DNA from: Escherichia coli
GTDB lineage: Bacteria; Pseudomonadota; Gammaproteobacteria; Enterobacterales; Enterobacteriaceae
NCBI RefSeq assembly: GCF_044324785.1
Contig: NZ_CP172127.1
Reading direction: 5' to 3' (one strand)
DNA length: 64,000 nt
In this document: positions 27,001-39,000 of the stretch, in pieces
Position numbering within the stretch: position 1 is the stretch's first letter
How the letters are laid out: each line of letters starts with the position of its first letter
Made by a program: the position numbers

Positions 27001-30000
27001 ACAAAGACGGTATGCGCATCGTGATTGAAGTGAAACGCGATGCGGTCGGTGAAGTTGTGCTTAACAACCTCTACTCCCAGACCCAGTTGCAGGTTTCTTT
27101 CGGTATCAACATGGTGGCATTGCACCATGGTCAGCCGAAGATCATGAACCTGAAAGACATCATCGCGGCGTTTGTTCGTCACCGCCGTGAAGTGGTGACT
27201 CGTCGTACTATTTTCGAACTGCGTAAAGCTCGCGATCGTGCTCATATCCTTGAAGCATTAGCCGTGGCGCTGGCGAACATCGACCCGATCATCGAACTGA
27301 TCCGTCATGCGCCGACGCCTGCAGAAGCGAAAACTGCGCTGGTTGCTAATCCGTGGCAGTTGGGCAACGTTGCCGCCATGCTCGAACGTGCGGGCGATGA
27401 TGCTGCGCGTCCGGAATGGCTGGAACCAGAATTCGGCGTGCGTGACGGTCTGTACTACCTGACCGAACAGCAAGCTCAGGCGATTCTGGATCTGCGTTTG
27501 CAGAAACTGACCGGTCTTGAGCACGAAAAACTGCTCGACGAATACAAAGAGCTGCTGGATCAGATCGCAGAACTGCTGCGTATTCTTGGCAGTGCCGATC
27601 GTCTGATGGAAGTGATCCGCGAAGAGCTGGAACTGGTTCGTGAACAGTTCGGTGACAAACGTCGTACTGAAATTACTGCCAACAGCGCCGACATCAACCT
27701 GGAAGATCTGATCACCCAGGAAGATGTGGTCGTGACGCTCTCTCACCAGGGCTACGTGAAGTATCAGCCGCTTTCTGAATACGAAGCGCAGCGTCGTGGC
27801 GGGAAAGGTAAATCTGCCGCACGTATTAAAGAAGAAGACTTTATTGACCGACTGCTGGTGGCGAACACCCACGACCATATTCTGTGCTTCTCCAGCCGTG
27901 GTCGCGTCTATTCGATGAAAGTCTATCAGTTGCCGGAAGCCACTCGTGGCGCGCGCGGTCGTCCGATCGTCAACCTGCTGCCGCTGGAGCAGGACGAACG
28001 TATCACTGCGATCCTGCCGGTGACCGAGTTTGAAGAAGGCGTGAAAGTCTTCATGGCGACCGCTAACGGTACCGTGAAGAAAACTGTCCTCACCGAATTC
28101 AACCGTCTGCGTACCGCCGGTAAAGTGGCGATCAAACTGGTTGACGGCGATGAGCTGATCGGCGTTGACCTGACCAGCGGTGAAGACGAAGTGATGCTGT
28201 TCTCCGCCGAAGGTAAAGTGGTGCGCTTTAAAGAGTCTTCTGTCCGTGCGATGGGCTGCAACACCACCGGTGTTCGCGGTATTCGCTTAGGTGAAGGCGA
28301 TAAAGTCGTCTCTCTGATCGTGCCGCGTGGCGATGGCGCAATCCTCACCGCAACGCAAAACGGTTACGGTAAACGTACCGCGGTGGCGGAATACCCAACC
28401 AAGTCGCGTGCGACGAAAGGGGTTATCTCCATTAAGGTTACTGAACGTAACGGTTTAGTGGTTGGCGCGGTACAGGTAGATGATTGCGATCAGATCATGA
28501 TGATCACCGATGCCGGTACGCTGGTACGTACTCGCGTTTCGGAAATCAGCATCGTAGGCCGTAACACCCAGGGCGTGATCCTCATCCGTACTGCGGAAGA
28601 TGAAAACGTAGTGGGTCTGCAACGTGTTGCTGAACCGGTTGACGAGGAAGATCTGGACACCATCGATGGCAGTGCCGCGGAAGGGGACGATGAAATCGCT
28701 CCGGAAGTGGACGTTGACGACGAGCCAGAAGAAGAATAATTTTACTTCTTCATGCCAAAAGGGAGCTATCTCCCTTGTTTGAATTGAAAAGTCCAGGCTG
28801 CAAAGTCTGGGCTTTTGTCGTATTAGGGCACGGTAAAGTTTGGCTGTGCCCGAAAAAATGGCTGGCTATACACAAGGAATGTGGCAATGAGTGGTGAAAA
28901 AAAGGCGAAAGGCTGGCGGTTCTATGGTCTTGTAGGTTTGGGCGCAATAGTACTGCTTTCCGCTGGCGTCTGGGCGTTGCAATATGCTGGCAGTGGACCA
29001 GAAAAAACGTTGTTGCCGCTGGTGGTGCACAACAATCTGCAAATCGATCTCAATGAGCCGGACCTCTTTCTCGACAGCGACTCTCTGAGCCAGCTTCCCA
29101 AAGACCTCCTTACCATTCCGTTTCTCCACGATGTTCTGAGTGAAGATTTCGTTTTCTATTATCAGAATCATGCCGATCGTCTGGGCATTGAAGGCAGCAT
29201 TCGCCGCATTGTCTATGAACACGATCTCACGCTGAAAGATAAGCTCTTTTCGTCACTCTTAGATCAGCCCGCGCAGGCGGCGCTATGGCACGATAAACAA
29301 GGCCATCTTTCACATTACATGGTGCTGATCCAGCGCAGTGGTTTAAGCAAACTGCTGGAGCCATTGTTGTTTGCCGCTACCAGCGACAGCCAGTTAAGCA
29401 AAACGGAAATCAGTAGTATTAAGCTAAATAGTGAAACCATACCGGTTTATCAGTTGCGCTATAACGGCAATAACGCCCTGATGTTCGCGACTTATCAGGA
29501 CAAGATGCTGGTGTTTTCCAGTACGGATATGCTGTTTAAAGATGACCAGCAGGATACCGAAGCCACGGCGATCGCAAGTGATTTGTTGAGCGGTAAAAAA
29601 CGCTGGCAAGCCAGCTTTGGCCTGGAAGAGCGTGCTGCCGAAAAAACGCCAGTACGTCAGCGCATCGTGGCCAGCGCCAGGTTGCTGGGTTTTGGCTACC
29701 AGCGGTTAATGCCTTCTTTTGCTGGCGTACGCTTCGAAATGGGTAACGACGGCTGGCACAGTTTTGTGGCGTTAAATGATGAATCCGCCAGCGTAGATAC
29801 CAGTTTCGATTTTACGCCGGTCTGGAACAGTATGCCTGCCGGGGCCAGCTTCTGTGTGGCGGTGCCGTATTCACACGGTATTGCCGAAGAGATGCTTTCG
29901 CACATCAGCCAGGAAAACGACAAGCTGACTGGGGCGTTAGACGGTGCCGCGGGGCTGTGCTGGTATGAAGACTCAAAATTGCAAACCCCGCTGTTTGTCG

Positions 30001-36000: not shown

Positions 36001-39000
36001 GTTTATTGTTGTCAGGCTGGGGAGAGTATAACGCGCGATACCGCGCTGGTACGTTCCTGTGGGCTCTATTTTGCGCCGCAGCGGTTGCATATTGGCGCAG
36101 ATGTGTGGGGGCAATACTGGCAACAGCGTCAGGCACCTGCGTGGTTAGCGTCTCTTACTACGCTGAAGCCAGAAACCTCGGTAACGGTTAAATCGCTGCT
36201 TGATTCATTAGCGACGTTACCTGCGCAAAACAAAGCTCAGGAAGTCTTACTGGATGTGGTGCTGGACGAGGCGAAAATCGGTGTCGCATCCATGCTCGGT
36301 AGTCGGGTACGGGTGAAAACCTGGAGCTGGTTTGCCGATAATAAACAGGAAATCCGTCAGGGTGGTTTTGCCGGCTGGTTAACCGATGGTACACCGCTGT
36401 GGGTGACTGGCAGCGGCACCAGCAAAACGGTACTAACCCGTTATGCGACGGTGCTTAATCGAGTTTTGCCAGTGCCGACGCAGGTTGCCAGTGGGCAATG
36501 TGTAGAGGTGGAGCTGTTTGCCCGCTATCCGCTGAAGAAAATCACAGCGGAAAAGAGTACGACGGCAGTAAAACCCGGCGTACTTAATGGGCGCTATCGT
36601 GTGACGTTTACTAATGGTAACCACATTACGTTTGTCAGCCACGGTGAGACGACCTTACTGAGCGAAAAGGGCAAACTGAAATTGCAGTCGCATCTCGATC
36701 GTGAAGAGTACGTTGCCAGAGTTCTGGATCGCGAGGCGAAAAGTACGCCACCTGAGGCAGCGAAAGCCATGACCGTGGCGATTCGCACTTTTTTACAGCA
36801 AAACGCCAATCGGGAAGGCGATTGCCTGACCATCCCCGACAGCAGCGCCACGCAGCGTGTTTCTGCTTCGCCAGCTACCACGGGGGCGCGAACGATGACC
36901 GCCTGGACGCAGGATCTTATCTATGCGGGCGATCCGGTTCATTATCATGGCAGTCGCGCTACCGAAGGGACGCTTTCCTGGCGGCAAGCCACGGCCCAGG
37001 CGGGGCAGGGAGAGCGTTACGATCAGATACTCGCGTTTGCTTATCCCGACAATAGCCTTAGCCGCTGGGGAGCGCCACGCTCAACCTGCCAGTTATTACC
37101 CAAAGCGAAAGCCTGGCTGGCGAAAAAAATGCCGCAGTGGCGGCGTATGTTACAAGGCGAGATGGGGTACAACGAACCAGACGTGTTTGCGGTCTGTCGT
37201 TTAGTCTCAGGTTTCCCCTATACCGATCGGCAGCAGAAACGGCTGTTTATTCGTAACTTCTTTACGCTTCAGGATCGGCTGGATTTAACCCATGAGTATC
37301 TGCACCTGGCCTTTGATGGTTATCCCACCGGGCTTGATGAGAACTATATCGAAACGCTGACCCGACAATTATTAATGGACTAATGCTATGCGAAAGATTT
37401 TTCTTCCGTTGTTACTGGTGGCGCTTTCGCCTGTTGCCCATGGCGAAGGTGTGCAGGAAGTCGAGATTGATGCACCGCTCTCTGGCTGGCATCCGGCAGA
37501 GGGTGAAGATGCCAGTTTTTCACAATCGATCAATTACCCGGCGTCGTCCGTCAACATGGCAGATGATCAAAATATCTCAGCGCAGATCCGCGGCAAAATA
37601 AAGAATTATGCTGCGGCGGGTAAAGTTCAGCAGGGCCGGCTGGTGGTCAACGGTGCCAGTATGCCGCAGAGAATTGAATCCGATGGTTCTTTTGCGCGCC
37701 CTTATATTTTTACTGAAGGCAGCAACAGCGTGCAGGTCATCAGCCCGGATGGGCAAAGCCGACAAAAAATGCAGTTTTACTCAACGCCGGGTGCTGGAGT
37801 GATCCGCGCGCGTTTACGGCTGGTTCTCTCCTGGGATACGGACAATACCGACCTCGATCTTCACGTTGTCACACCTGATGGCGAACACGCTTGGTACGGT
37901 AACACCGTGCTGAAAAACAGTGGTGCACTGGATATGGATGTCACGACGGGGTATGGACCCGAGATTTTCGCCATGCCAGCGCCAGTTCACGGGCGCTATC
38001 AGGTGTATATCAACTACTATGGTGGGCGCAGCGAAACGGAATTGACGACCGCCCAACTGACGCTGATTACCGATGAAGGATCGGTCAATGAGAAACAGGA
38101 AACTTTCATTGTACCGATGCGTAATGCTGGCGAGTTGACGCTGGTGAAAAGTTTTGACTGGTGAGCCATCCTTTCACACAACCTGGCTCTCTCTTTTTTC
38201 AGATAAGACTGCTGGGCGATCTGCCGACGCCAGGATATAACCATTAACAAGCGTCGGCAGATTGGTCATTTCTTGTTGTTCGTACGGAAAACTGTCCATT
38301 TACTCCGGCTTTCCTGATTAAGGCAATGGTTTCTAAGCGATACGCATTATTGCAATGGTGACAGAACATTGCGGTAACACGCTTTTACCGCTACCTTAAC
38401 CACACTCCATCGGTCACCTGAGGCGGAGCTTCGCCCCTTTGAAATACCTTGCTTCTTTTCGTACAACCCTGAAAGCCTCGCGCTACATGTTCAGAGCATT
38501 GGCGTTAGTGCTCTGGCTGTTGATTGCTTTTTCATCCGTTTTTTACATCGTTAATGCGTTACATCAGCGAGAATCGGAAATTCGTCAGGAATTTAATCTG
38601 AGTTCCGATCAGGCTCAGCGCTTTATTCAACGCACCTCTGATGTGATGAAAGAGCTGAAGTACATCGCCGAAAATCGCTTATCGGCAGAAAACGGTGTGC
38701 TTTCCCCGCGTGGACGAGAAACGCAGACGGATGTGCCTGCGTTTGAACCGCTGTTTGCTGACTCTGATTGTTCCGCAATGAGTAACACCTGGCGAGGTTC
38801 TTTGGAGTCATTGGCGTGGTTTATGCGCTACTGGCGCGATAATTTTTCTGCGGCTTACGATCTCAACCGGGTATTTTTAATCGGCAGCGATAACCTCTGC
38901 ATGGCCAATTTCGGTCTGCGTGATATGCCAGTGGAACGCGATACCGCGTTGAAAGCGTTGCATGAACGCATCAATAAATATCGAAATGCACCACAAGACG

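Follow-up and report, generated by a model that had tools for sequence, protein, structure and literature searches.

The window analyzed here, a 64,000-nt stretch of Escherichia coli DNA (NCBI RefSeq assembly GCF_044324785.1, contig NZ_CP172127.1), carries an intact five-gene operon, yfaA-yfaT-yfaS-yfaQ-yfaP, whose central gene encodes a thioester-less alpha-2-macroglobulin. By protein family and gene order, this locus is the E. coli ortholog of the magABCDEF operon of Pseudomonas aeruginosa, in a five-gene enterobacterial form without magA. We consider it likely, with a probability of about 0.7, that the products would form an inner-membrane-anchored periplasmic complex of the Mag type, in which YfaS acts as a thioester-independent trap defending the periplasm and the cell wall. 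The operon, with its thioester-less macroglobulin and fixed partners, is already known: Budd et al. reportedly gave the first description of it in 2004, and it was studied in Pseudomonas in 2013, 2018, 2021 and 2025. An earlier, sequence-only reading of the window had singled it out as an under-described system whose partner proteins consist only of domains of unknown function (DUFs). That description does not fit a mag ortholog in which YfaT resembles the solved MagC structure and YfaQ has recognizable folds. It remains apt for the E. coli proteins themselves, which are uncharacterized (a 2024 paper still describes YfaS in this way; PMC10882980), and for the mechanism of type II macroglobulins, which is unsettled.

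Genomic context and orthology of the yfa operon

An open reading frame (ORF) scan found five plus-strand ORFs without internal stops at 28887-38164, flanked by the gyrA stop codon (28739) upstream and by rcsC (38439) downstream; gyrA was identified through the annotated K-12 and SCU-102 regions. The genes are as follows.

28887..30575, + strand: yfaA, 562 amino acids (aa), ATG start (alternative GTG at 28881); DUF2138; MagB ortholog
30572..31195, + strand: yfaT, 207 aa; DUF1175 / NlpC-P60-like; MagC ortholog; predicted signal peptide at residues 1-19
31129..35733, + strand: yfaS, 1534 aa (alternative ATG at 31114); type II (thioester-less) alpha-2-macroglobulin; MagD ortholog
35734..37383, + strand: yfaQ, 549 aa, GTG start; MagE ortholog
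37388..38164, + strand: yfaP, 258 aa; DUF2135; MagF ortholog; signal peptide at residues 1-19 (hydropathy)

All five products match Pfam families at very low E-values, and family together with order gives the correspondence YfaA = MagB, YfaT = MagC, YfaS = MagD, YfaQ = MagE and YfaP = MagF. YfaT matches the P. aeruginosa MagC sequence of PDB entry 7BK8, a crystal structure, with an E-value of 3.6e-103 and 74% identity, and YfaS is 52-56% identical to the A2M orthologs of Pseudomonas. A scan of one genome per species yielded 297 loci encoding a YfaS relative. The best 80 were kept for the analysis and come from Escherichia species, Superficieibacter, Serratia, Edaphovirga, many Pseudomonas and a few unclassified gammaproteobacteria. 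The order YfaA-YfaT-YfaS-YfaQ-YfaP is kept in the window and in all 80 loci wherever the contig allows. In 64 loci, all of the Pseudomonas group, the yfaA homolog has a paralog of yfaP (~40% identity) upstream of it, which by its position is magA. No Enterobacterales locus among the 80 has a second yfaP-like gene, and in the window gyrA stands directly upstream of yfaA, so that the six-gene arrangement with magA is absent. Within E. coli, a 9.7-kb query spanning the locus was matched in 5425 of 5426 complete genomes (5177 of them covering at least 80%, at 95-99% identity), and the RefSeq annotation gives the same five genes everywhere.

Two of the related loci depart from this pattern. In Escherichia albertii the yfaA frame seems to end early (~344 instead of 562 codons; 7750-8781 of its locus), and in Pseudomonas cichorii no yfaP/magF match follows the yfaQ homolog, only the upstream magA-like copy being found. 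Both may be lineage-specific losses or assembly errors.

The junctions agree with what had been read from the sequence. The yfaA and yfaT genes overlap by 4 nt in a common ATGA, yfaT and yfaS overlap by 67 nt (from ATG 31129) or 82 nt (from ATG 31114), the yfaS TAA is directly followed by the GTG of yfaQ, and 4 nt separate the yfaQ stop from the yfaP start. Each of the five products has an N-terminal hydrophobic segment and no further predicted membrane span (by hydropathy only), with plausible signal-peptidase sites in YfaT, YfaS, YfaQ and YfaP. The N-terminal signal or anchor segments on all five products bear out the view of the genes as one compact, envelope-located operon. Co-transcription is inferred from the packing of the genes and their conserved order rather than from promoter or terminator signals.

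Bait region and degenerate thioester site of YfaS

Pfam places MG2, A2M_BRD (the bait-region domain), A2M and bMG10 domains in YfaS, and a YfaS-family profile aligned over its full length with ECAM/YfhM (hhalign, 99% probability, 21% identity). YfaS thus belongs to the alpha-2-macroglobulin family and has MG domains together with a bait and a TED-like region. The mature protein has a mass of 166 kDa, and the whole of YfaS contains three cysteines. A repeat search gave short chance matches and, in addition, a DKT.YQPGE motif recurring at the starts of the YfaS MG domains. The sites discussed below are:

33640..33753, + strand: YfaS bait region, residues 838-875, matching the MagD bait
34324..34347, + strand: thioester-homologous site, PWGGVINT against PYGCLEQT in ECAM (hhalign)
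31129..31242, + strand: predicted YfaS signal peptide, residues 1-38, ending ANA before DD (hydropathy and AXA site); the first 67 nt lie within yfaT in another frame

Within the bait, TNRSERR of YfaS corresponds to ANRSERG at residues 847-853 of MagD (PMC5764988), with the common core NRSER. The YfaS bait is rich in Arg and Lys and contains the dibasic sites SERRVK and RPRREE. From computed masses, cleavage there would divide YfaS into fragments of ~90 and 76 kDa; MagD, of 165 kDa, gives 91 and 74 kDa. When conservation was compared with distant orthologs over all 30-residue windows of YfaS, the bait ranked 21 of 1505.

A sequence scan found the C.EQ motif in none of the five proteins. The profile alignment places YfaS residues 1064-1077 onto ECAM YPYGCLEQTASGL, with the scaffold of the thioester domain kept and the Cys, Glu and Gln all replaced. 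The earlier statement that YfaS has no CxEQ motif is therefore correct, GGVINT standing at the GCLEQT site of ECAM, and because all three residues are replaced, the exclusion of canonical covalent trapping is sound for this YfaS. Among the 80 orthologs the site reads GGVEQT in 60 (loss of the Cys alone), GCVEQT in 11, CGVEQT in one and GGV[IV]NT in eight; the last are the eight Enterobacterales loci, and the window's own copy is of the same kind. All 11 GCVEQT orthologs lie in the same six-gene operon context, and in several of them the motif Cys is the only cysteine of the protein. The label "thioester-less" therefore does not hold for every Mag-type macroglobulin. The CVEQ forms fall into two Pseudomonas clades on a neighbor-joining tree, so the cysteine appears to have been lost independently three times or more.

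The choice of yfaS start decides whether the gene model includes the predicted signal peptide, which has a canonical h-region. An ATG stands at the position of 31129 in 79 of 80 loci, and 78 of 79 keep the 67-nt overlap with yfaT, GC-rich Pseudomonas included; in the window a Shine-Dalgarno-like AAGGA lies 6 nt before this ATG. The RefSeq/PGAP model (1504 aa) begins instead at GTG 31219 and is without the predicted signal peptide. The conserved ATG and overlap support the start annotated in K-12, and the PGAP start would wrongly drop the signal peptide. The sequence IAAC at residues 22-25 formally fits a lipobox; Cys25 is present in only 4 of 81 sequences.

Predicted folds and candidate active sites of the partner proteins

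Pfam reports two DUF2300 matches and a partial SpoIID match in YfaQ. The family is small, with only 292 representatives among 1.84 billion proteins, and an alignment of 63 sequences (28-96% identity) was used for an AlphaFold model, which reached a pLDDT of 94.6 and a pTM of 0.92. Foldseek matched this model to beta-lactamases at a probability of 1.00. The predicted structure indicates that YfaQ is not fold-less, and that it combines a beta-lactamase/penicillin-binding protein (PBP)-like domain, a SpoIID-like domain and an invariant HEXXH motif, each with a candidate active site:

YfaQ, + strand, layout: a signal peptide, then the beta-lactamase/PBP-like domain (residues ~24-245), a beta-sheet linker, the SpoIID-like domain (~312-450) and the C-terminal HEXXH domain (456-548)
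35911..35922, + strand: S60-L-W-K63 (SxxK), at the N-terminus of helix 59-73
36055-36063 and 36316-36321, + strand: companion motifs S108-C-G and K195-T196, the latter on the beta strand where KTG sits
36733..36735, + strand: E334, aligned to the glutamate taken as catalytic in SpoIID (profile alignment to 4RWR, 5I1T and 5TXU); invariant in 63 of 63 sequences
37291..37305, + strand: H520-E-Y-L-H524 (HEXXH), with E536 at 37339-37341 and E540 at 37351-37353; candidate zinc-metallopeptidase site

The SxxK and SCG motifs were aligned, in a weak match with E 0.13, to SVFK and SCN of Clostridioides difficile PBP3 (7RD0). All 62 sequences with a residue at these positions have S60 and K63, and S108, K195 and T196 show no variation among the 63 sequences. 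Two of the motifs are altered, SxN reading SCG and KTG reading KT[FWY]. Over the SpoIID-like region 133 residues align, with an NCBIfam SpoIID_LytB score of 23 bits against a cut-off of 83 bits; the SpoIID glutamate to which E334 aligns is one that we take to be the catalytic residue. H520, E521 and H524 are invariant (63 of 63), E536 occurs in 60 of 63, and position 540 is E or D in all 63. The HEXXH was placed on the zinc-binding HELLH of the minigluzincin selecase MJ1213 (4QHF) in a weak match (E 1.6), and no metallopeptidase is among the YfaQ fold matches listed, which the beta-lactamase/PBP-like and SpoIID-like domains account for. We also considered the two DUF2300 matches as an internal repeat, and rejected this on a Smith-Waterman score equal to that of shuffled sequence and on the differing predicted secondary structures.

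YfaQ has eight cysteines, several of them invariant; these and its predicted signal peptide favor a location in the periplasm. This conflicts with the Pseudomonas work, where MagE was reported to be cytoplasmic and not stably in the complex, the sole experimental evidence on the location of MagE.

YfaT matches DUF1175 of Pfam at 2.5e-58, with an additional weak match to NLPC_P60, and all 79 sequences have C55, H70, H148 and H160. On these matches YfaT has an NlpC/P60 fold with a predicted Cys-His-His/polar triad. A survey of papain-like peptidases classes DUF1175/MagC as inactive but peptidoglycan-binding (PMC10318531). At the N-terminus of YfaA, four positive charges precede a hydrophobic stretch of 23 residues that has no clear cleavage site, which suggests a signal anchor.

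30734-30736, 31013-31015 and 31049-31051, + strand: YfaT C55, H148 and H160, candidate Cys-His-His triad; invariant
28914..28988, + strand: YfaA signal-anchor helix, residues 10-34 (hydropathy and AlphaFold helix)

The hydrophobic helix of YfaA and of the aligned Pseudomonas orthologs is single and N-terminal; a figure legend of the 2013 MagD paper puts the MagB helix at the C-terminus. YfaP matches DUF2135 of Pfam at 5.6e-17, and a profile combining YfaP and MagA-type sequences gave chance-level matches only against the PDB sequences, with no solved relative. The fold check of the partners that the sequence-only reading had proposed gave a fold for YfaT (7BK8), predicted folds for YfaQ (AlphaFold/Foldseek) and no convincing assignment for YfaA or YfaP.

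Conservation of the locus within E. coli

The ratio of nonsynonymous to synonymous substitution rates (dN/dS), measured against K-12, is 0.05-0.12 for each of the five genes and 0.006 for gyrA, which indicates purifying selection on all five. In MG1655, yfaS is annotated as pseudogene b4500. The uninterrupted yfaS of the window and its disruption in K-12 were both confirmed; the cause is a single substitution and not a frameshift:

35230..35232, + strand: yfaS codon 1368, TGG (Trp) in the window and TGA in MG1655; in-frame, sole lesion in K-12

An intact yfaS is nothing special, as the full-length E. coli YfaS cluster (1504 aa by PGAP) has 40,950 member sequences, and the intact gene is therefore the norm in the species. 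Disruptions recur: SCU-102, the complete genome most similar to the window, carries a frameshifted yfaS (locus 8521-13036), and shortened YfaS variants of ~959-1380 aa occur repeatedly in E. coli, one of them from an O157:H7 genome. On these comparisons, the central gene has been lost repeatedly although the whole locus is under purifying selection. That the locus is decaying in E. coli, as the pseudogenes of K-12 and SCU-102 might indicate, was considered and rejected on the dN/dS values and the dominance of the intact form.

Signals and sequences around the operon

A promoter scan found no sigma-70-like promoter upstream of yfaA and two weak internal sites, fewer than in shuffled sequences. 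Terminator-like matches across the region were near background level in a consensus scan, which gave the following hairpin at the upstream boundary of the unit:

28759..28776, + strand: terminator-like hairpin 3' of the gyrA stop (consensus scan only)

The opposite strand of the operon holds short shadow ORFs only, of at most 161 aa, and an Rfam scan of 28000-39000 found no RNA family. None of the five proteins had a PADLOC match at E-values up to 0.01, so that the operon is not a catalogued anti-phage system, and NCBIfam gave PRK11410 ("hypothetical protein") for YfaA and sub-threshold matches for the other four.

The ribosome-binding region of yfaA (28868-28886) reads ACACAAGGAAUGU. The binding consensus of CsrA/RsmA is RUACARGGAUGU, to which this single site is near, a resemblance that could be due to chance. 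Given that the Pseudomonas mag operon is RsmA-regulated, control of the E. coli operon by CsrA is conceivable by analogy. At the other end (38165-38438), yfaP is directly followed by rcsC, the atoSCDAEB operon that intervenes in K-12 being absent; a query across this direct junction was matched at 80% or more by only 1537 of 5426 complete E. coli genomes.

Model and alternatives

MagD is the prototype of the type II bacterial alpha-2-macroglobulins, the class without a thioester (PMC3735191, PMC5764988). The assembly of the Mag proteins, their anchoring at the inner membrane, non-covalent trapping and protection against peptidoglycan-targeting type VI secretion system (T6SS) effectors have been published (PMC3735191, PMC5764988, PMC12663445). 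MagD is periplasmic, bound to the inner membrane through MagB and degraded without it, and forms 1:1 complexes with MagA, MagB and MagF. In P. aeruginosa cells it is cleaved from 165 to 100 kDa, dependent on operon partners, and loss of magE alters its processing and greatly lowers its amount; on the deletions that remove the 100-kDa form the MagD paper is inconsistent, the text naming magB and magE and the legend of Figure 6 magB and magC. A MagD variant with a tobacco etch virus (TEV) protease site engineered into the bait is cut by TEV protease and retains the protease non-covalently. MagC is reported to bind peptidoglycan (cited in PMC10318531). MagD changes conformation with neutrophil elastase, and magD mutants were reported to be less virulent in chronic infection (PMC3735191, PMC5764988). 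In a 2025 CRISPR interference (CRISPRi) screen the mag operon protected P. aeruginosa against VgrG3 and Tae1, by a molecular mechanism given as unknown (PMC12663445). Both effectors attack peptidoglycan, and VgrG3 is a lysozyme/chitosanase-like enzyme, not a protease.

In the Mag-type model for E. coli, an incoming hydrolase would cleave the YfaS bait (residues ~838-875), and the cleaved YfaS would close around it without a covalent thioester bond. The N-terminal membrane helix of YfaA would anchor and stabilize YfaS, the NlpC/P60-like YfaT and the beta-lactamase/PBP-like and SpoIID-like domains of YfaQ would tie the complex to peptidoglycan, and YfaP would serve as an accessory binding partner. 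Together they would shield the periplasm and cell wall from foreign proteases and from peptidoglycan-degrading effectors, such as those injected by type VI systems. The orthology, architecture, thioester loss, export signals, conserved operon order and purifying selection are directly supported by the data presented here. That the E. coli proteins act as the Pseudomonas Mag proteins do, and the roles given to YfaQ and YfaP, are what we infer.

Several points weigh against this model. Classical macroglobulin baits are variable and promiscuous, so that the highly conserved YfaS bait is a hint of a dedicated endogenous protease rather than of open-ended trapping. With no magA in E. coli, and a thioester site that has decayed further than the Pseudomonas one, the mechanisms may differ. 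Trapping by MagD was shown with an engineered TEV bait, and the cleavage was incomplete. Since the effectors against which mag protects target peptidoglycan and VgrG3 is no protease, a bait-cleavage trap offers no obvious explanation for that protection. The recurrent inactivation of yfaS, in K-12, in SCU-102 and in many truncated clusters, implies that the gene is dispensable in the laboratory and in some lineages, and we found no experimental study of the E. coli Yfa proteins in the literature.

A tentative alternative, which we hold to be improbable, is that the operon is a self-armed damage sensor. The PBP-like and SpoIID-like domains of YfaQ would sense peptidoglycan or its fragments, and the HEXXH(E) site would cut the YfaS bait in a step like the 165- to ~100-kDa conversion, turning YfaS into an active or peptidoglycan-protective form; the bait would then be a maturation site and no passive lure for foreign proteases, with a logic like that of BlaR1/MecR1, where a penicillin-binding sensor is joined to a zinc protease. 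On this view YfaQ would be a secreted enzyme with three sites, its SpoIID-like domain binding or cleaving glycan. Self-arming of this kind would account for the bait's conservation, for a cleavage that depends on the partners and for a thioester that can be dispensed with, and, if true, also for the repeated loss of the thioester (CVEQ in some Pseudomonas, GVEQ in most, erased in Escherichia). It is in keeping with the confident YfaQ model (pLDDT 94.6), with the invariance of S60, K63, S108, K195, T196, E334, H520, E521 and H524 in 63 sequences, with the alignment of HEXXH to the selecase zinc site, with the bait's conservation rank of 21 of 1505, and with the effects of operon partners and of magE loss on MagD processing and amount. 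However, the metallopeptidase reading draws on a motif together with one profile match (E 1.6), the altered SCG and KT[FWY] motifs mean that the PBP-like domain may only bind its ligand, MagE was reported to be cytoplasmic and not stably in the complex, and the disagreement between text and legend (magB/magE or magB/magC) leaves the deletions that abolish the 100-kDa form ambiguous.

Somewhat less probable still is a peptidoglycan maintenance or repair module, in which YfaT, as an endopeptidase with the NlpC/P60 triad, and YfaQ, as a DD-peptidase-like and lytic-transglycosylase-like enzyme, would be the catalytic components and YfaS a scaffold or shield that positions or restrains both, in parallel with the type I macroglobulin YfhM and its pairing with the peptidoglycan synthase PBP1c. 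Predicted folds of cell-wall enzymes, with invariant residues of catalytic type, do occur in two of the four partners; the mag phenotype concerns peptidoglycan-targeting effectors specifically, and the K-12 type I macroglobulin gene adjoins pbpC. The peptidoglycan binding reported for MagC would also fit, but the same survey (PMC10318531) classes DUF1175/MagC as inactive, the enzymatic activities of the partners are predictions from sequence and model, MagD traps a protease in vitro, and this reading gives no reason for keeping a macroglobulin that has both a conserved bait and a TED-like region. We regard as very unlikely that YfaS is a host-directed colonization factor, neutralizing host proteases, for instance neutrophil elastase or serine proteases of the gut, that reach the periplasm. 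Bacterial macroglobulins were originally proposed to act in this way; the elastase-induced change of MagD and the reduced virulence of magD mutants (PMC3735191, PMC5764988) speak for it, as does the Arg/Lys-rich bait, which trypsin-like enzymes could cut. A host-specific role is hard to square with the presence of the same operon in many soil and plant Pseudomonas and environmental Enterobacterales; moreover, the bait is conserved rather than diversified, and the literature consulted yielded no E. coli infection phenotype.

Bacterial macroglobulins resemble pieces of animal innate immunity working in the bacterial periplasm, and the type II (Mag) form protects Pseudomonas against the cell-wall-degrading toxins injected by rivals and is tied to virulence in chronic infection. 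Almost every E. coli strain carries this machine; the stop codon in its central gene in K-12 may in part explain why experimental work has been confined to Pseudomonas, and strains with an intact yfaS, such as this one, are the right background for functional tests. The unsettled mechanism and the testable leads in YfaQ, the bait and the thioester site are where the interest of the locus remains; in YfaQ the domain assignment points to S60, E334 and H520/E521/H524, residues whose roles could settle how a macroglobulin acts without a thioester.

Comparison with known systems

The closest known system is the Mag complex of P. aeruginosa (magABCDEF, PA4492-PA4487). The two share protein families and gene order, the bait core NRSER, the 67-nt gene overlap, a macroglobulin with no thioester cysteine and a predicted Sec-type signal peptide, a partner with a predicted membrane helix, and the predicted sizes of the bait fragments. 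They differ in that E. coli and the other sampled Enterobacterales are without magA, and in the thioester site, which is GGVEQT in most Pseudomonas orthologs, GCVEQT in some and GGVINT in Escherichia; Gac/Rsm regulation is known for Pseudomonas only.

With the type I macroglobulins (E. coli YfhM/ECAM and Salmonella Sa-A2M), YfaS has in common the superfamily and domain order, with a bait, a TED-like region and a bacterial MG10 domain, the periplasmic location and a genetic partner linked to peptidoglycan. ECAM, however, carries CLEQ at residue 1187 and a lipobox, MLALAGC, at its N-terminus, whereas YfaS has GGVINT and an unconserved Cys25; ECAM traps covalently, and yfhM adjoins pbpC in K-12 while yfaS adjoins yfaT and yfaQ. 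The window locus thus has none of the type I features CxEQ, conserved lipobox and pbpC adjacency.

Like BlaR1/MecR1, YfaQ would combine a penicillin-binding, class D beta-lactamase-like SxxK domain and a HEXXH motif in one polypeptide; unlike them, it has the reverse domain order, no membrane-embedded protease domain, a putative metallopeptidase fold and an added SpoIID-like domain, and no link of YfaQ to beta-lactam sensing is known. The region at ~312-450 differs from SpoIID/LytB in being embedded in a larger protein, outside any sporulation context.

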